A DNA stretch of 64,000 bases, from the NCBI GenBank assembly GCA_938074745.1, contig CALJEJ010000006.1:18043-82042 (forward strand), in the 5' to 3' direction. Positions 29,061 to 37,433 of the stretch are shown piece by piece. Within the stretch, counting starts at the first letter, position 1, and each line of letters opens with the position of its first letter. The notes beneath the pieces were generated by a model, which was not told the origin of the DNA, made no database searches, and was given only the letters and a program-made list of their open reading frames with translations. The stretch is from an uncultured Endomicrobiia bacterium. GTDB lineage: Bacteria > Elusimicrobiota > Endomicrobiia > DTEH01. The position numbers were made by a program, and so were the translations under genes.

Positions 29061-29080
29061 ATATTTATTTGAGGTTATAT

Positions 29081-29737
29081 ATGGATATAAAATTTATTAA
29101 AGGTATTGTTGAGACTTTGTTATTTATAACAGATAAACCTTTAAGCATAGAAAAACTGGTTGAAATTATCAACGATCCAGAAGTTACTCCACAGATAGTT
29201 GCAGAAGTAGTAAAAGAGTTGCAATCAGAATATGCTCAAAACTCCGCGTTAGAAATTCGTGATATTGCTGGCGGTGTACAGTTCGCTACCAAACCTCAAT
29301 ATAGTGAATATGTTCGTCGGTTATATCGCGAACGAGTATTATTACGATTATCTCCTGCTTCTATAGAAACTTTAGCAATAATTGCGTATCGTCAACCAAT
29401 CACTAAAGCAGAAATTGAAGAAATTCGTGGTGTAGACACTACTTCTGTACTTGAAACATTACTTGAACGCAGATTAATAAAAATAGTTGGTAGAAAGGAA
29501 GTACCCGGCAGACCATTATTATATGGGACAACACAAGAGTTTTTAAAATATTTTGGTCTAAATTCGTTGACAGATTTACCACCGTTAGACCAGTTTTTGA
29601 CAGAAAATATAGAACAACAAGAAACGGTTCCTGTTGAAGAAAAAGAGCAGACTGTTTTTAATGAAAATGAGTTTTCTCAAAATATGGCAGAACAATCGTC
29701 TTCATTACAAAAAGATAATAGCGAAAGCAGAGAATAA
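29081..29737 (+). CDS. scpB: Segregation and condensation protein B
   Basis: Tandem winged-helix ScpB pattern (IVETLLFITDKPLSIEKL... AIIAYRQPITKAEIEEIRGV). ATG at 29081 lies 6 nt after GAGG. Confidence 0.85.
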   Translation: MDIKFIKGIVETLLFITDKPLSIEKLVEIINDPEVTPQIVAEVVKELQSEYAQNSALEIRDIAGGVQFATKPQYSEYVRRLYRERVLLRLSPASIETLAIIAYRQPITKAEIEEIRGVDTTSVLETLLERRLIKIVGRKEVPGRPLLYGTTQEFLKYFGLNSLTDLPPLDQFLTENIEQQETVPVEEKEQTVFNENEFSQNMAEQSSSLQKDNSESRE

Positions 29738-29771: not shown

Positions 29772-30731
29772 ATGAATTACAAACTTGGTATTTCTACGAT
29801 ATATTTTGTTTCACAAAATTTTAATTATAATGGTTGGGAACAAATTAAACAAAATTTAGTAAAATTGAATTTGCAAAATTTAGAATTGAATGTTGATATA
29901 CCAATTTCATGGATGGAAAATATTGAAAAGGATGTAAATAACAAAACAATAAAAATTTTAAGTATGCACAATTTTTGTCCTGCTGTAGAAAATATTCCTT
30001 CAGGTAAAACGGGATTTAATGTTTACAATTTAAATTCGGAAGATGAAGAAGAACGTTCTCTTGCGATAAAATATACACTTAGAACAATAGATTTTGCCCA
30101 ACGGTTAAATGCAGAAGTTGTGGTGTTACATACCGGCAATATTCCTACAGAACCTACTGGCTGGGAATTATATAAGTTTGCTTGTAAATTTGGTGTCAAT
30201 TCAAAGTTGTACAAAAAATACAAAGATTCTCTTCTTATTACGCGACAGAAAAACAAAAAGAAATATTTTTCTTTATTACTTAATTCATTAGACAGAATTG
30301 TCTGGTATGCTGAAAAGAAAAATGTTGTTGTTGGTATAGAGACTAGATTTTCTGCTGATGAAATTCCAAATTTTGAAGAAGTTGAAGAAATATTGAGTTA
30401 CTACAAAACAAAATATGTTCGTTATTGGCACGATTTTGGCCATGCTGAGATACTTTCAAAATTAGGATTTGTTGATGGTCACCAAGCGTATTTTAATAAG
30501 TATAGCGAGTTTATTAAAGGATACCATATCCATGATGTAAAAGTTGACGATGGAAAATTAGTAGACCATTTTGCGCCAGGTAGTGGAACTATTAAGTTTG
30601 AAAATTTTTTAAAATTTTCTGATGATAAAATTTATATACTAGAGATCCATCCTAAAGAAAAATTTGATAATGTTATTTCTGGTGTAAAAATTATTAAAAA
30701 CATTCTAAACAATCAACAAGGAGAATCTTGA
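29772..30731 (+). CDS. Sugar phosphate isomerase/epimerase-like TIM-barrel protein (xylose isomerase-like fold)
   Basis: Pattern of metal-binding acidic and His residues in TIM-barrel context (VVLHTGN, GIETRF, WHDFGHAEI, HIHD). Confidence 0.45.
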   Translation: MNYKLGISTIYFVSQNFNYNGWEQIKQNLVKLNLQNLELNVDIPISWMENIEKDVNNKTIKILSMHNFCPAVENIPSGKTGFNVYNLNSEDEEERSLAIKYTLRTIDFAQRLNAEVVVLHTGNIPTEPTGWELYKFACKFGVNSKLYKKYKDSLLITRQKNKKKYFSLLLNSLDRIVWYAEKKNVVVGIETRFSADEIPNFEEVEEILSYYKTKYVRYWHDFGHAEILSKLGFVDGHQAYFNKYSEFIKGYHIHDVKVDDGKLVDHFAPGSGTIKFENFLKFSDDKIYILEIHPKEKFDNVISGVKIIKNILNNQQGES

Positions 30732-30732
30732 A

Positions 30733-31731
30733 ATGAGAGAATTTCGTCGAGATCCTGTAATAGGACGTTGGGTTATAATTTCTTCAGAACGGAGTAAACG
30801 TCCTTCAGAGTTTAAAATATCACAACATCAAACTGACGACAAAGACTTATGTCCGTTTTGTTGGGGTAATGAAAAATTTACTCCTCCGGAAATTATTTCT
30901 TATCGTCGTGCTGGGACACAAAAGGATACAGCAGGTTGGTGGGTTCGTGTAGTACCCAACAAATATCCAGCATTACGTGTTGAAGGAGAGGTTGTTAGGA
31001 CGGGAGAAGGGATATATGATAAAATGAGTGGTATTGGAGCGCATGAAGTTATTATTGAAACAGAACATCACGATAAAGAATTATACCAATTAGAAGACAA
31101 GTATGCAATAGATATTTTTAGAGCATATCGTGACCGTATAATTGATTTAAAACGAGATATAAGGTTTGAATATATTTTAATTTTTAAAAACAGTGGTGCA
31201 ATAGCAGGTGCTACGTTGTCACATCCTCATTCCCAACTTATTGCATTACCAATGGTACCAATAAGAATAAAACAAGAACTTCAAGGAGCAAAATTATATT
31301 TTGATTATAAGGAACGGTGTGTATTTTGTGATATAATTTCTTATGAACTTAGTTGTATGAAACGTGTAATTTTTGAAAACGAAGATTTTGTAGCAATTTG
31401 TCCTTATGCAAGCAGATTTCCGTTTGAAGTGTGGATATTGCCAAGACGGCATGATCCAATGTATGAAGATATTCAAGAAAATGAATTAAAAAATTTTACA
31501 CAGATAATGAAAGTTATAAACAAAAAAATTTGTTTTTCATTGTCAAACCCACCGTATAATTATCTATTACATACTTCACCGTTAAAAAGTTATAATTTAC
31601 CACATTATCATTGGCATTTGGAAATAATGCCAAAACTTACTGGAGTAGGTGGGTTTGAATGGGGGACAGGATTTTATATAAACTGTGTACCGCCAGAGGA
31701 AGCTGCCAAATTTCTAATGGAGGTACAGTAG
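30733..31731 (+). CDS. galT: Galactose-1-phosphate uridylyltransferase-like HIT-family nucleotidyltransferase
   Basis: N-terminal Zn site CPFC and the active-site motif SHPHSQLIALP (HxHxQ) in GalT arrangement. The N-terminus MREFRRDPVIGRWVII is typical of GalT class. Confidence 0.65.
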   Translation: MREFRRDPVIGRWVIISSERSKRPSEFKISQHQTDDKDLCPFCWGNEKFTPPEIISYRRAGTQKDTAGWWVRVVPNKYPALRVEGEVVRTGEGIYDKMSGIGAHEVIIETEHHDKELYQLEDKYAIDIFRAYRDRIIDLKRDIRFEYILIFKNSGAIAGATLSHPHSQLIALPMVPIRIKQELQGAKLYFDYKERCVFCDIISYELSCMKRVIFENEDFVAICPYASRFPFEVWILPRRHDPMYEDIQENELKNFTQIMKVINKKICFSLSNPPYNYLLHTSPLKSYNLPHYHWHLEIMPKLTGVGGFEWGTGFYINCVPPEEAAKFLMEVQ

Positions 31732-31737
31732 ATTAAG

Positions 31738-33969
31738 ATGAATTTCAATAATTCATCATCAAATACAATATTAGATCAACAACACATTGAAATTCTAATA
31801 AAATCTTTCCGATTAGCATTGACAAACATAAGAATGTATCCTGTCACAAGCACATTAGTAGAGAAGCCTATTTCAGACTTTTATTCTATAATAAAACAAT
31901 TATGCACATTTTTGCCAGAAGTTGTTATTGCAGAATTAGACAATAAAATATATGTCAACACCATTGAGTGCAGTGGTCGAGAGGCACTTGTTTCAGCGAA
32001 CCAATTAGTTCAAATTTTTATCCAAGCAGGAATTAAAAGTATAACTTTTAGACCAAACATTACATTAGAAGAATTGAAAGAAATTCTTATTGCGTTGTCT
32101 ACCAAGAAACAAAAAACGACTACTAAAGAATTATTAAAACAAGTTATTCAAGAAAAAGGTATACAGAATGTTGCTATTGATGAAGTAGAGTTTATTACTG
32201 TTTCAAAATCTGATTCGGTAGTGAAATCTATTTTGAACCAGCTTTCTGTTGCACCGAGTAATTTGTCTGAGTTAATGAATATATTAAGCAATGTATATAC
32301 AGAACTGGATAAAGTAACTAATAAAGAAACAAAACAACAAATACAAGAAAAAATTGTAAAATACATTTCTTCTCTTGATGCACAAACAATTAGCGATTTA
32401 TTTTCGCAACCGTTACCTCCTAAAATTGAACAATCAGGGTTAAAACAACAAGTGTTTAACAATCTTACAAAACAAAAAGTTGAAGAAACTTTTAATGAAA
32501 TAATAACGTGGTGTAAAAGATTGCGTAACGAAGTAAGTTCTGAAATAGAATATCTTGAGAAACTTTCTCATTTAAGAGATTTTATAAGGCTTGTAATCAA
32601 TTCTCCAGTAAGTAAACTCATACCTATAGAAATTTTTGAAGAACTGTTTAAAGTAGGATTGATTGATGTATTACCTGAATGGGTTACAGAGAAAAAACAA
32701 AAAAAATCGTGGATTGCAGAACTTGATGAATTGCTTAACAGTAACGAACCAGTAAAACTTTTACAAGAATCTTTTATTACTTCATTAAACGATACTCTAG
32801 ATAAACTTTGTGTTATAGGTTTAGATGACAAAATAGAAAAAATAACAACAATGATGGTAGAAAATTTACAAAACCCTGTGATAAAATTACGTCAGCTGGC
32901 TTCTTCTTCGTTAAATACTATAACAAAACAAATAGTAAAATATGGAAAAGATGCAATTGTAAGAAAGTTAGTGGGGAATATAATAAATCTATTAATTAAA
33001 GAACAAGACGAAACTGTAGTTAAACAGTATATTGAGATATTTTTTGACAGTTTCGTTTCTATGATTATAGCTAAAGACTACCAGACTTTTATAGATTATG
33101 CACAACAATTGTTAAAATTTGCTTTAGAATTATATTCAGTCTCTTCTGAAAAGTCAAAATTAATTTATGATATGTTTAACAAAGTATTTAATTCTACCAA
33201 AGAAATATTAGGTGAAGATTTTGCTTCAGGAAAAGAAGAGTATATAATACCAATATTGTGGTTCTTAAACTACATTGGAGACAATTCTATAGAAATTCTA
33301 GTTTCTACTAGTATAAAAACAGAAAATGTTAAAGTTAGACAGATGATACTAAACATTTTAAAAGACCGTGTAGAAAAAGTAGCAGAAGTTATAAAAAAGA
33401 TGGTTACTCCTAAAACTCCTTCTCGAGAAATTAATAAAATTATAGATATTTTAAATCAACTGGATTACGATTTTTCTGAAACTTTTATATCGTTATTTCC
33501 ATATACAACATATGCTAACAAGATTGCTATAATAAATTATGTTTATAAATATCCAACGGAACATAATATAGAATGGCTAGTAAGTTTGTTAGACAGTGAT
33601 GATTTACAAATTATAGAATACATAGTAGACATTATAACATCTTTAGAAATATCTTCTTCAGTACCTAAATTAATAAAACTGTTAAAAACTGATAATATTG
33701 ATATAAAAAAACGCGTATGTGTTGCTTTAGGTACATTGAAAAATGTTATTGCAGTAAAACCGTTAAGAAAGATTCTAATGTCTAGACCTAAATTTTTTGG
33801 GTTAATAAAAGGTCAACCGATGGAACTCAGGATGGTTGCTTGTTGGGCACTGGGAAATTTTATAACATTACCTGAAATAAAGTCGCTGTTTATTAAAATT
33901 GCTAATAGTAAAGACCAACCAATAGCGAATTCTGTAAAAGAAATGTTACAGAAAAATAAAATTATATGA
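31738..33969 (+). CDS. HEAT-repeat (PBS-lyase HEAT-like) protein, 743 aa, N-terminal 500 aa of unknown function
   Basis: C-terminal repeats of the pattern KRVCVALGTLKNVIAVKPLRKIL ... RMVACWALGNF. Confidence 0.5.
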   Translation: MNFNNSSSNTILDQQHIEILIKSFRLALTNIRMYPVTSTLVEKPISDFYSIIKQLCTFLPEVVIAELDNKIYVNTIECSGREALVSANQLVQIFIQAGIKSITFRPNITLEELKEILIALSTKKQKTTTKELLKQVIQEKGIQNVAIDEVEFITVSKSDSVVKSILNQLSVAPSNLSELMNILSNVYTELDKVTNKETKQQIQEKIVKYISSLDAQTISDLFSQPLPPKIEQSGLKQQVFNNLTKQKVEETFNEIITWCKRLRNEVSSEIEYLEKLSHLRDFIRLVINSPVSKLIPIEIFEELFKVGLIDVLPEWVTEKKQKKSWIAELDELLNSNEPVKLLQESFITSLNDTLDKLCVIGLDDKIEKITTMMVENLQNPVIKLRQLASSSLNTITKQIVKYGKDAIVRKLVGNIINLLIKEQDETVVKQYIEIFFDSFVSMIIAKDYQTFIDYAQQLLKFALELYSVSSEKSKLIYDMFNKVFNSTKEILGEDFASGKEEYIIPILWFLNYIGDNSIEILVSTSIKTENVKVRQMILNILKDRVEKVAEVIKKMVTPKTPSREINKIIDILNQLDYDFSETFISLFPYTTYANKIAIINYVYKYPTEHNIEWLVSLLDSDDLQIIEYIVDIITSLEISSSVPKLIKLLKTDNIDIKKRVCVALGTLKNVIAVKPLRKILMSRPKFFGLIKGQPMELRMVACWALGNFITLPEIKSLFIKIANSKDQPIANSVKEMLQKNKII

Positions 33970-34472
33970 ATAAAGCTATAAGTAATTTCAAGTTAAAAAT
34001 TTTGTTATTATTTTTTATGTTAAGTATAACACTATTTGCTGAGGTTAAAAATGAAAATAAATATATAGATTTTTCATTATTAACCATTGAATCAAAAAAA
34101 ATTAAACTTAGCGATATAGTAGGCAAAAAAATTGTCTTACTTAATTTCTGGGCGAGTTGGTGTCCGTACTGTGTTGCTGAAATACCACAATTAAAGAGGT
34201 TGTATACTAAATATAAAGACAAAGGTTTAGAAATTGTTGCAGTAAATATTTTAGAAAATAAGAATGTGGTATCACGATTTGTAAAGAAAAATAAGATTAC
34301 GTATTTTGTTGTATTAGATACTGATGGTAAAGTTGCACAACTCTACAATGTCCGAGGAATACCACAAAATTTTCTTATTGACACTAAAGGAAAAATAGTT
34401 TATATTGCTCATCAATTACCTCCAGAAGAAGTTATTAAAACACTCATCACTACATTAAAACCTGAAAAATAA
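33966..34472 (+). CDS. TlpA/ResA-like periplasmic thiol:disulfide oxidoreductase (redoxin)
   Basis: Signal peptide. CxxC in redoxin context (LLNFWASWCPYCVAEIPQLKRLY). Confidence 0.75.
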   Translation: MNKAISNFKLKILLLFFMLSITLFAEVKNENKYIDFSLLTIESKKIKLSDIVGKKIVLLNFWASWCPYCVAEIPQLKRLYTKYKDKGLEIVAVNILENKNVVSRFVKKNKITYFVVLDTDGKVAQLYNVRGIPQNFLIDTKGKIVYIAHQLPPEEVIKTLITTLKPEK

Positions 34473-34480
34473 TACAAAAA

Positions 34481-36157
34481 ATGAGGTTTGAAACAAAGTC
34501 CTATCATAAAAAACAATTTACACAAAAAATTCTATTTCATATATTTTTCGTTGTAGGAACAGTTTTTGTTTTAGTATATTTTCCGACTTCTTTATGGCAT
34601 TTTCCCGACGGTATAGGATATTATTCTTTTTTACCAGCTATTTTTAAGTATAAAAATTATGATTTTTATAAAATAATAAGAACCTATACACCAAATGTTG
34701 TAGGTACTACGAAAAACGGGTTTGTAATGAATGATTTTGAAATTGGTAGTAGTATAGTTTGGTTTCCTGTATATTTAGTGTCAAATTTGTTTGATAGTGA
34801 GAGTATTTCTATTGTATTTACCAACTTTTATTCGTCAATATTAGGTTTTGGAAGTTTATTTATATTTTTTAAGTTTCTTACTAACAAATTAAATTTTTCT
34901 AAAAAATTTTCGTTGTTTATTTGTTTAACTTTATTGTTAGGCACACCACTTTTGTTTTATTCTTATAGCATACCACAAAATCCACATACTACTATTGCAT
35001 GTCTTTGTAGTTTATATTTATACTTTCTATTATCAAAAAAAGTAAATAGTTCTTACTATCAGAGATATCTATTGCTTGGGTTATTACTCGGATTAATTTC
35101 TGCAGTACGAGTTCAAAGAATAATACTTGGTATTTGTGTAGGTATTGAAATTATTCAGCAGTTGATGAGAAGAAAAAATTTTAAGGAAAGTTTTTTATAT
35201 AGTAGTGTTTTTGTTGTAGGATTTTTGATAGGTTTTTCGCCTCAATTAATAAATTCAGTAGTATTGTTTTCAAGATTATTACCTATTAAATTATATACTA
35301 TATCACTCAATAAATACATTTTCTCTTCATTATATGAGATACTTTTTTCAAGTTATCATTCTGTGTTATTATGGACACCGCTAATAATTATATCTTTTAT
35401 TGGGTTAATTTTTGGTTTAAAAGAAAATTTTGTTGTTTCATTAAGTACGATTTTAATTTTTATAATTGATACTTTTATTTTAGCCACAGTAGTTTCTCCT
35501 GGTGGTGGTTCGTCTTTCGGTATAAGATATTATACAGATTTAGTTTTTATTTTAGGTTTAGGGATATATTTTTTATTTAATTTTTTACAACAAAAAAAGT
35601 GTGTATTTTTTGGTGTTGTAATTACTTCTATATGTTCAGTTTGGAGTTTTATTTTGTTTGTTTTATCTACTTCAGGATATTTAGACTTGTTAGAAGTCTA
35701 TGATATAAAAACTTTTTTTAATAAAATTTTTAGTTTTAGTAAAAATTTTAATTTCAACTTAGTCCCACGATATTATGGACCAGTTGAGGAATATTTGTTT
35801 TTTATATTAATTTTAGTTTCTACATTTTTTGTTATTAATAAACTTATTCAACATAAAACTAAGTTATTTACGATTGTATTTGTATTATATTTGATATTCT
35901 TTAATTATAGTATAATAAAAGCAGGCTTTTTTAACAGAGTTGTATATAAGCGAGAAGTTTTTGAACAGTCGTTACCATTTAGAGATTTCCAAATTTTTTA
36001 TATTTATGCTGGGATAAAGGTAAGGTTAAAATATTATGCCTTAACAGGGAAAAGAGAAGAATATGAATTTTATAGTGCTTTCCGAGACAAACTTAAACCT
36101 AGTAGATTATGGTGGAAGAGAGTTTTTCAACCTATATTTTTTAGTAATAACAAATAA
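34481..36157 (+). CDS. Polytopic integral membrane protein of unknown function (possibly GT-C-like)
   Basis: 558 aa, more than 10 hydrophobic helices, first loop with HFPDGIGYY. No confident family. Confidence 0.4.
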   Translation: MRFETKSYHKKQFTQKILFHIFFVVGTVFVLVYFPTSLWHFPDGIGYYSFLPAIFKYKNYDFYKIIRTYTPNVVGTTKNGFVMNDFEIGSSIVWFPVYLVSNLFDSESISIVFTNFYSSILGFGSLFIFFKFLTNKLNFSKKFSLFICLTLLLGTPLLFYSYSIPQNPHTTIACLCSLYLYFLLSKKVNSSYYQRYLLLGLLLGLISAVRVQRIILGICVGIEIIQQLMRRKNFKESFLYSSVFVVGFLIGFSPQLINSVVLFSRLLPIKLYTISLNKYIFSSLYEILFSSYHSVLLWTPLIIISFIGLIFGLKENFVVSLSTILIFIIDTFILATVVSPGGGSSFGIRYYTDLVFILGLGIYFLFNFLQQKKCVFFGVVITSICSVWSFILFVLSTSGYLDLLEVYDIKTFFNKIFSFSKNFNFNLVPRYYGPVEEYLFFILILVSTFFVINKLIQHKTKLFTIVFVLYLIFFNYSIIKAGFFNRVVYKREVFEQSLPFRDFQIFYIYAGIKVRLKYYALTGKREEYEFYSAFRDKLKPSRLWWKRVFQPIFFSNNK

Positions 36158-36218: not shown

Positions 36219-37091
36219 TTATATTGAGAATCCAATATTATCAATTAACCTAGTTGTTCCGATATATACTGCAACAAAAATTCTTAATTTAGTTCCTGCA
36301 GGAATTTTTTTGACATTGTTTTCTACAGGGTTCAAATTTTCATCATAAATTTCAAAATATTGTATCTTATGATTTACATTAGACAACAAATTGTCCAAAA
36401 ACTTTTTTGATTTATTGATACAACTTTTGATACTAAACTTTTTTTGCAAGATTAGATCTTTGCAATATAAAAGTGATTTATATATAGCAGGTGAAGATGC
36501 ATATTCTTTTTCTGACAAGTACAAATTTCTACTTGAACATGCTAACCCGTTATTCTCACGTATTGTTTCTACAGGGATAATTTTTATATCAAAATTTAAA
36601 TCTTTAACCATTTGTTGAATAATTTTTAATTGTTGATAATCTTTTTCGCCAAAATATGCTTTGTGTGGTTTAACAATATTGAAAAGTTTAGTAACGACTG
36701 TTGCTACACCGCGGAAATGTCCAGGACGATATTTTCCACAAAGTATATCCTGCAATTTTGTAACTTCTACAAATGTTAAAATTTTGTTGTTAGGATACAT
36801 TTCTTTTACTGAAGGATGAAATACAAAATTTACTTTTTGCTGACGACAGATTTCTAAATCTTGTTGAATAGGTCGTGGATATTTTTTGTAATCCTCTTTA
36901 GGTCCAAATTGTATCGGGTTGACAAAAATTGACACTACGGTTACATCATTTTCACTTTTTGCTTTTTTGATAAGTTCAATATGTGCTTTATGTAAAGCTC
37001 CCATGGTAGGGACAAAACCGATAGTCAAATTTTTCTTCCTACACAAATCTGCAATTTTTTGCATTTCACGAATGGTTTTTATAACTTTCAT
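36219..37091 (-). CDS. panC: Pantoate--beta-alanine ligase
   Basis: GFVPTMGALHKAHIEL (HIGH-like) and GHFRGVATVV motifs. 290 aa. Confidence 0.9.
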   Translation of the reverse strand: MKVIKTIREMQKIADLCRKKNLTIGFVPTMGALHKAHIELIKKAKSENDVTVVSIFVNPIQFGPKEDYKKYPRPIQQDLEICRQQKVNFVFHPSVKEMYPNNKILTFVEVTKLQDILCGKYRPGHFRGVATVVTKLFNIVKPHKAYFGEKDYQQLKIIQQMVKDLNFDIKIIPVETIRENNGLACSSRNLYLSEKEYASSPAIYKSLLYCKDLILQKKFSIKSCINKSKKFLDNLLSNVNHKIQYFEIYDENLNPVENNVKKIPAGTKLRIFVAVYIGTTRLIDNIGFSI

Positions 37092-37109
37092 AATTTTATT
37101 AAACAGTAA

Positions 37110-37433
37110 TTATTTTGTAATTCGTTCAATTGCTTCAATATAATCTTTTTTGTTTCTGAGACCTACAAATTGTTCTACTGGTGTTCCATTTTTAAAAATT
37201 ATCACAGTCGGGATAGCCATAATACCATATTTAGCAGAAATTTTTGGATTGTTGTCTACGTTGAGTTTGAATATTTTTATTTTAGATTCAGGATATGTGT
37301 TAGATAATTCTTCAATGATAGGTGAGAGTAATTTACATGGACCGCACCATTCTGCCCAAAAATCTACCAGGACAGGTACAGGTGATTGTAATACTTCTGT
37401 ATCAAAATTTTCCGCAGTTATTTCTTTTGTCAT
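37110..37433 (-). CDS. trxA: Thioredoxin
   Basis: WAEWCGPCK active site. 107 aa. Confidence 0.9.
   Translation of the reverse strand: MTKEITAENFDTEVLQSPVPVLVDFWAEWCGPCKLLSPIIEELSNTYPESKIKIFKLNVDNNPKISAKYGIMAIPTVIIFKNGTPVEQFVGLRNKKDYIEAIERITK

Follow-up and report, generated by a model that had tools for sequence, protein, structure and literature searches.

This report concerns five genes that lie end to end on the + strand of a 64,000-nucleotide (nt) stretch of DNA, hereafter the window, from an uncultured Endomicrobiia bacterium (contig CALJEJ010000006.1). They occupy positions 29772-36157 and were picked out by a model working from the letters alone, an exercise that we refer to as the original prediction. 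It described five co-directional genes separated by 1, 6, -4 and 8 nt, and the list of open reading frames (ORFs) bears this out: 29772-30731 (319 amino acids, aa), 30733-31731 (332 aa), 31738-33969 (743 aa), 33966-34472 (168 aa) and 34481-36157 (558 aa), with an ATGA overlap at 33966-33969. The labels it gave them were a TIM barrel, a GalT-like HIT enzyme, a PBS-type HEAT-repeat protein, a TlpA-like thioredoxin and a GT-C-like membrane protein, and all are essentially right by Pfam, NCBIfam and structure comparison. Clear homologs exist for all five, and we therefore take them as real genes rather than chance; ORFs of such length would be very unlikely to arise by chance in DNA of 25-32% G+C (GC). 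The antisense ORFs inside the run (32148-32462, 32568-32831 and 33962-34222) found no support. The names carried by close homologs agree with an origin in Elusimicrobiota, class Endomicrobiia.

The first gene (29772..30731, +) encodes an AP_endonuc_2 (xylose-isomerase-like) TIM barrel that is MJ1311-like. It scores 67.7 bits with Pfam PF01261 (cut-off 31.1), and is not near the cut-off of any NCBIfam equivalog (IolO 27.3/300, UlaE-type 15/317 and nfo 18.7/130 bits). The solved structure nearest to the family profile is MJ1311 (PDB 3WQO; E 1e-11), whose DxGH and H-x-H-D...D-H motifs align with those of the window protein's family. A literature search returned nothing functional on MJ1311. On these comparisons, 'sugar-phosphate isomerase' is a superfamily label only, because no characterised equivalog was matched and MJ1311 is itself uncharacterised. 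The invariant residues of the family are E38, H66, N67, H120, E190, R192, H220, D221, H224, H252, H266 and E291, with D265 and H254 nearly so. A set this rich in His, Asp and Glu suggests a metal enzyme, and the 319-aa protein is probably metal-dependent. Its many His residues recall the multi-metal sites found in the AP_endonuc_2 superfamily. They had also prompted an endonuclease IV-like reading, which was dropped when the Endo IV chain scored only E 0.15.

Automatic annotation would call the product of the second gene (30733..31731, +) a galactose-1-phosphate uridylyltransferase. A GalT-branch HIT nucleotidyltransferase of the ADP-glucose phosphorylase type is the better reading, judging by its PDB match and its motifs. 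The 332-aa enzyme matches Arabidopsis thaliana At5g18200 (PDB 1Z84/2H39) at E 2e-76 and 260 bits, with 42% identity over the full length, and is much weaker against the GalTs themselves (127 bits for Pyrobaculum aerophilum GalT and 83 bits for Escherichia coli GalT). It passes TIGR00209 galT_1 (115.2 vs 102.1 bits) and falls far short of the PRK11720 equivalog (135 vs 448 bits). At5g18200 is named as an ADP-glucose phosphorylase in bioRxiv 10.64898/2026.09.13.751320. The two proteins are of similar length and share a CPFC Zn cluster, an H-x-H-S-Q nucleophile motif and a second Cys/His cluster; C40-P-F-C43, H104, H164-P-H166-S-Q168, C196, C199, H240 and H293 are all invariant in their alignment, which places both the H-x-H-x-Q nucleophile motif and the Cys/His zinc site in the window enzyme. 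They differ in that ours is bacterial, with an activity and a nucleotide specificity predicted from sequence. Its most probable chemistry is the interconversion of ADP-glucose plus phosphate and glucose-1-phosphate plus ADP, a proposal prompted by the similarity to At5g18200 and by the alpha-glucan synthesis genes that sit beside its homologs. The reaction would proceed via a covalent His166-nucleotide intermediate and would serve cytoplasmic alpha-glucan (glycogen) metabolism. Three of the metagenome loci that we compared (L090 2031-4060, L094 318-2341 and L104 3926-5993; L numbers denote such loci throughout) carry two GalT-like paralogs in tandem, with 44-52% identity to the enzyme of the window.

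Those neighbours came to light in a wider scan of 80 metagenome loci carrying GalT-like relatives at 45-72% identity, 62 of which had enough sequence upstream and 62 enough downstream. In 31 of the latter the GalT-like gene is directly followed by glycogen synthase GlgA (Glyco_transf_5 plus Glycos_transf_1), and the window enzyme differs from these Elusimicrobiota homologs in having no GlgA neighbour. DUF5693 appears in 17 loci of the scan, in several of them directly after GlgA. Upstream, the GalT-like gene is directly preceded by ScpB in 30/62 loci, often after M50-TrpS-ScpA as in the window, where ScpB itself occupies 29069..29737 on the + strand (Pfam SMC_ScpB 1.2e-56); its place upstream of the TIM and GalT-like genes is conserved in Elusimicrobiota-type loci. 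The TIM gene stands between ScpB and the GalT-like gene in 10 loci (of the 62 with upstream sequence). GlgE is found downstream of the GalT-like gene in L049 and L061, followed in L049 by a GT4 and a UDPGP-family (UDP-glucose pyrophosphorylase-type) gene.

TIM homologs keep varied company. In two Elusimicrobiota lineages that diverged deeply the TIM gene comes after ScpB, and a 38%-identical homolog comes after PolyA_pol-M50-TrpS-ScpA-ScpB with neither GalT nor HEAT beside it; the homologs of Omnitrophota and Verrucomicrobia have unrelated neighbours. Profile searches of the GalT-like loci found the HEAT family only in five loci of the window's own clade type and the GT-C family in none, and no member of either family lies within 5 kb of GalT-like genes below 70% identity. 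A literature search found no paper on GalT-like/GlgA coupling in Elusimicrobia. As side observations, a set of three genes, for the GalT-like enzyme, GlgA and a DUF5693 protein of ~550 aa, recurs in Elusimicrobiota-type metagenome contigs (L033, L035, L036, L038, L043, L046, L048, L053, L072 and others), and in L049 (5001-10244) and L061 (4613-7765) an EF-G paralog and a TIM gene come before the GalT-like gene, the GT4 of L049 being possibly GlgM-like. In this variant the GalT-like enzyme has an alpha-glucan pathway of the GlgE type as its neighbour.

The third gene encodes the 743-aa protein, which has three parts. At the N terminus is an alpha/beta module of ~150 aa with a Y34-P35-x-x-S38 motif (31738..32211, +), defined by an AlphaFold2 (AF2) model and by alignment. 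Next comes an all-helical, family-specific middle region spanning residues ~160-575 (32212..33462, +), for which the AF2 confidence score (pLDDT) is mostly 80-95. PBS-type HEAT repeats fill residues ~576-743 (33463..33969, +), recognised by Pfam HEAT_2 and by PDB profile. The original prediction had placed such repeats at the C terminus and declared the N-terminal part unassignable, and Pfam, NCBIfam and PDB profile searches agree on both counts: HEAT_2 falls at 611-681, PDB profile matches cover only ~577-721, and the N-terminal ~575 aa drew no match from any of the three. Searched against the PDB by profile, the family as a whole returned nothing beyond alphaRep/HEAT. An exact look-up of the 743-aa protein gave no record, and homologs were used for context.

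The N-terminal module was also taken on its own. Its AF2 model has helices at 8-33 and 39-56 and strands at 62-67, 70-73, 101-104 and 145-147. Among 21 diverse copies, Y34 and P35 are invariant, with N30, S38 and E112 nearly so. Pfam recognised no recurring family in the 21 isolated modules, and a PDB profile search with the module gave spurious short matches only (designed proteins, calmodulin). Full-length matches to it among the top hits number 138, with the module N-terminal in 103 and internal in 35.

We then have the family to consider, which was searched exhaustively with a profile of the non-HEAT N-terminal 575 aa among 50%-identity cluster representatives. It has 1655 representatives at E <= 1e-3, a number that falls to 583 at E <= 1e-10 and to 159 at E <= 1e-30; the remark in the original prediction that large HEAT-repeat proteins are uncommon in bacteria fails for a family of this size. 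Lengths of 700-799 aa account for 70 of the 148 best hits, and many relatives of ~740 aa match the profile end to end, among them proteins of other Elusimicrobiota and of Deltaproteobacteria. The window protein fits this architecture of ~700-800 aa, namely YPxxS module, helical region and C-terminal HEAT_2. Larger members carry additional domains: among the 47 top hits of at least 800 aa, cNMP_binding is present in 22, PilZ in 14 and GGDEF plus AAA_16 in 15, the named examples of fusions being Desulfobacterales and Thermodesulfobacteriota. Since family members are fused to cNMP-binding, PilZ and GGDEF domains, the 743-aa protein is most likely a scaffold or adaptor in cyclic di-GMP (c-di-GMP) or cyclic nucleotide (cNMP) signalling. 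A literature search found no paper on HEAT-PilZ-cNMP proteins.

The known PBS-lyase-type HEAT-repeat proteins CpcE/CpcF, alphaRep scaffolds and YibA have no counterpart to three quarters of the 743-aa protein, that is, to its N-terminal module and helical region. It scores only 14.5 bits against the NCBIfam cut-off of 330 for CpcE, with no full-length bilin lyase match, and unlike CpcE/CpcF it has no phycobiliprotein context and has relatives fused to c-di-GMP/cNMP signalling domains. Around distant members of the family the gene neighbours are unrelated ones: one member lies in a heme biosynthesis cluster, another beside HrpA and a histidine phosphatase. The heme case is a 755-aa member seen in many samples (L023 1-11858, also L024-L026), where the cluster comprises GlutR, PBG deaminase, HEM4/TP_methylase, ALAD, two radical SAM/SPASM genes and an NirDL-like HTH.

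The fourth gene (33966..34472, +) encodes an exported 168-aa thiol-disulfide oxidoreductase that is TlpA/ResA-like; it begins with a hydrophobic leader and contains the motif WCPYC. It is above the Pfam cut-offs for AhpC-TSA (1.1e-29), Redoxin (3.5e-27) and Thioredoxin_8, and under the cut-offs of all the NCBIfam subfamilies (ResA 125.3/170, DsbE 71.2/123 and TlpA 55.6/230 bits). With ResA, TlpA and DsbE it shares a thioredoxin fold, WCxxC, an N-terminal export or anchor segment and a similar length; it differs from them in that no cytochrome c maturation or CcdA/DsbD gene lies nearby.

The last gene (34481..36157, +) encodes a polytopic protein of 558 aa, for which an HFPDGIGYY first loop had suggested a GT-C enzyme. 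Structural similarity to solved GT-C enzymes, which identifies a GT-C transmembrane module, and an invariant Asp43 bear this out: the protein is a GT-C fold membrane glycosyltransferase, PMT_2/ArnT-like, and not an unrelated transporter. D43 of the WHFPDGIGYY motif does not vary among 24 sequences, which reach down to 20% identity, and lies in the first extracytoplasmic loop, after the first transmembrane segment (TM1, residues 10-33) and before the membrane helix that follows. The 558-aa protein itself has no Pfam hit, and 12 of its 24 homologs match PMT_2 (best E 4.2e-8). Against NCBIfam LA_3751/LA_3752 it reaches 43.7 bits, where the cut-off is 200, and a PDB profile search with the family gave no match. 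Its sequence identity to ArnT (5F15), Pmt1/2/4, ALG12 and PglB/STT3 is only 9-13%, and unlike ArnT and other PMT_2-type GT-Cs it lacks a large periplasmic domain. GT-C enzymes use polyprenyl-phosphate-linked sugar donors. This one would move a sugar from such a carrier to an envelope acceptor, by way of Asp43 in the first outer loop. A 41%-identical ortholog from another lineage (L021) is found beside a Bat operon and not in the gene order seen here, and a 23%-identical relative lies within a GT4-rich polysaccharide cluster. On the side, the L021 ortholog is ~1 kb upstream of DUF58-BatA-VWA-TPR-BatD, and L022 (1517-13029) has three paralogs of the GT-C family in a polysaccharide cluster rich in GT4 and methyltransferase genes, with two sulfatases nearby.

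How much of this order is kept by relatives? Our comparison within the clade took in 16 loci of the same Endomicrobiia group, with HEAT proteins 45-55% identical, of which 15 were informative for TlpA and GT-C. TIM, GalT and HEAT are contiguous in every locus that covers them, in the order ScpB-TIM-GalT-HEAT...panC-trxA. ScpB is upstream wherever there is upstream sequence, and the convergent housekeeping pair panC and trxA (36219..37433, - strand in the window; Pfam Pantoate_ligase 3.3e-104 and Thioredoxin 4.1e-31) is downstream wherever the locus extends far enough, ending the syntenic stretch in all such cases. What lies between HEAT and panC-trxA varies. TlpA is present in 11/15 loci and GT-C in 6/15, both in three (L003, L011 and L012) and neither in one (L007); TlpA and GT-C have been gained and lost independently, and are optional envelope genes in the clade. 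A further clade-type locus, L032 (1-2238), has a GalT-like gene (71% identical) that adjoins panC(-)-trxA(-) directly; HEAT, TlpA and GT-C are all absent. The genes are, then, co-localised in related genomes. All five come together in just 3 of the 15 informative loci, and outside the clade the partners scatter, and the idea that the five-gene order is kept beyond background synteny does not hold up. The synteny that does exist within the clade says little about function, because the unrelated flanks ScpB, panC and trxA are kept equally well.

The packing of the genes is similarly uninformative. The original prediction saw a tightly packed block; the tight packing is real, and the separateness is not, since the 34-nt gap before 29772 makes no real boundary. 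The whole of 4018-36157 is a single uninterrupted + strand gene run with gaps of -14 to 39 nt, and because it is all packed alike, the closeness of these five genes is nothing special. GC skew is positive across the window, in nearly every 2-kb bin, and the whole 64 kb is probably on one leading strand. Nearly all gene-sized ORFs of 1-64000 are on the + strand. A scan for consensus promoters and terminators found 72 sites against 71.9 expected, which is chance level, the scan being uninformative in this AT-rich DNA. Rfam had no match in the five-gene region, and only a distant tRNA in the window.

We read the five-gene run as a lineage-specific mosaic within a long, gene-dense, leading-strand run, and not as one functional module, with a probability of roughly 60%. 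On this reading, the TIM and GalT-like genes would be the remnant of an older Elusimicrobiota arrangement, (M50)-TrpS-ScpA-ScpB-(TIM)-GalT-like-GlgA-(DUF5693). In one Endomicrobiia clade the cytoplasmic 743-aa HEAT protein would have taken the GlgA position downstream of the GalT-like gene. The interval between the HEAT gene and panC-trxA would be a variable slot, occupied by the TlpA/ResA-like gene, the GT-C, both or neither.

Several observations pull the other way. In nearly all clade members TIM, GalT and HEAT are contiguous and the gaps that separate them are very short, and the ATGA overlap between HEAT and TlpA is found in the window, in L003 and in L008; given this contiguity, the gaps and the overlap, the TIM, GalT, HEAT and TlpA genes are probably co-transcribed. 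TIM-GalT adjacency also recurs in diverged lineages, where the TIM proteins are 32-38% identical (L049, L055, L061, L067 and L068), which hints that this pair is functionally coupled. As to the history, GlgA giving way to HEAT is a presumed direction of change. The ADP-glucose assignment draws on similarity to a single characterised enzyme, from a plant, and on what lies beside the gene in other genomes; glgA was not found in the 64-kb window or in the covered sequence of the clade loci. The signalling role of the HEAT protein comes solely from domain fusions in Desulfobacterota relatives, the 743-aa protein of the window having no nucleotide-binding domain of its own.

The main rival keeps the first three genes together as a clade-specific trio. 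The HEAT protein would serve as a regulatory scaffold and tie ADP-glucose and glycogen flux to some signal, possibly a cyclic nucleotide that a partner senses. It would have inherited GlgA's former position and perhaps its control point. The clade loci supply its attractions: all but one have the three genes contiguous, spaced by anything from a few to ~150 nt, and HEAT is exactly where GlgA is in other lineages. The fusions of family members to PilZ, cNMP-binding and GGDEF domains also speak for it. Against this, ScpB, panC and trxA are equally conserved in the same loci, so that adjacency is weak evidence at this depth, and L032 manages without HEAT. Other Elusimicrobiota have the HEAT family, but not beside the GalT-like gene, and the heme and HrpA neighbourhoods of distant members do not belong in this picture. 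Taking these together, we think the trio unlikely, albeit the alternative that fares best.

A broader idea about the HEAT family itself is also unlikely, and we offer it as a tentative suggestion and no more. The stand-alone form of ~740 aa would act as a c-di-GMP/cNMP pathway adaptor, recruited in this Endomicrobiia clade beside an ADP-glucose enzyme in GlgA's place and there controlling carbon storage. The 743-aa protein may, as part of the same suggestion, stand for a large undescribed family of Elusimicrobiota and Desulfobacterota/Deltaproteobacteria-type genomes, whose N-terminal module would be a dedicated partner in cyclic-nucleotide signalling.

Less well placed is the explanation offered in the original prediction, that of a single sugar-nucleotide, periplasmic-redox and membrane module, which we spell out here as one for envelope glycosylation. 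TIM and the GalT-like enzyme would make an activated sugar, the GT-C would transfer it in the periplasm, TlpA would keep a periplasmic partner reduced and HEAT would act as the scaffold, and the whole might feed or complement the GT-C/TPR block at 4018-25367. There is a case for it in the tight gaps and the ATGA overlap, in the complete five-gene order of L003, L011 and L012, and in the identity of the membrane protein as a GT-C with four more GT-Cs upstream. Besides Bat/aerotolerance-type genes (DUF58, BatA, VWA, DUF4159 and GATase1-like), that upstream block contains three TMEM260-like GT-Cs with terminal TPR repeats, one GT-C of PMT_2 type, a GT28 of the MGDG-synthase type and a DUF4175 protein. 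Other points count against the module. The order occurs in one clade, in which the flanks are kept just as well and TlpA and GT-C come and go independently of each other, and the GT-C has an ortholog elsewhere in L021. The widespread partner of the GalT-like gene is GlgA, a cytoplasmic enzyme, or GlgE. GT-C donors are lipid-linked, yet there is no polyprenyl-phosphate sugar synthase (GT2) among the genes of the block. Five housekeeping genes (a PolyA_pol-type nucleotidyltransferase, an M50 protease, TrpRS, ScpA and ScpB) separate the run from the upstream block, and a comparison of the 558-aa GT-C with the PMT_2 protein in that block rejects it as a recent paralog. A tie between the cytoplasmic sugar enzymes and the GT-C is not supported by anything we found, and we regard the envelope module as improbable. 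Weaker again is the notion that the HEAT protein is a HAWK-like chromosome-organisation accessory of the SMC-ScpAB encoded just upstream, which is scarcely credible given that the two do not co-occur outside the one clade.

Two observations on the surroundings deserve mention. The association of GT-C genes with Bat operons recurs, in the upstream block of the window and in L021. From 39974 on, beginning with an MraZ-like ORF, gene sizes make the sequence a candidate for a dcw cluster (cell division/cell wall).

The mosaic has a plain message. When a genome is compact, close packing together with shallow synteny can mimic an operon, and as a 'module' the run is an ordinary finding. At least five GT-C enzymes are encoded within 64 kb of this genome. 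The parts of most value are the uncharacterised family that joins a YPxxS module to HEAT repeats and the association of the GalT-like gene with GlgA. Real novelty is confined to the HEAT family, whose N-terminal module is absent from Pfam and the PDB. The tie of the GalT-like gene to glycogen synthase or GlgE across Elusimicrobiota-type genomes, for its part, hints at how these bacteria may handle ADP-glucose.

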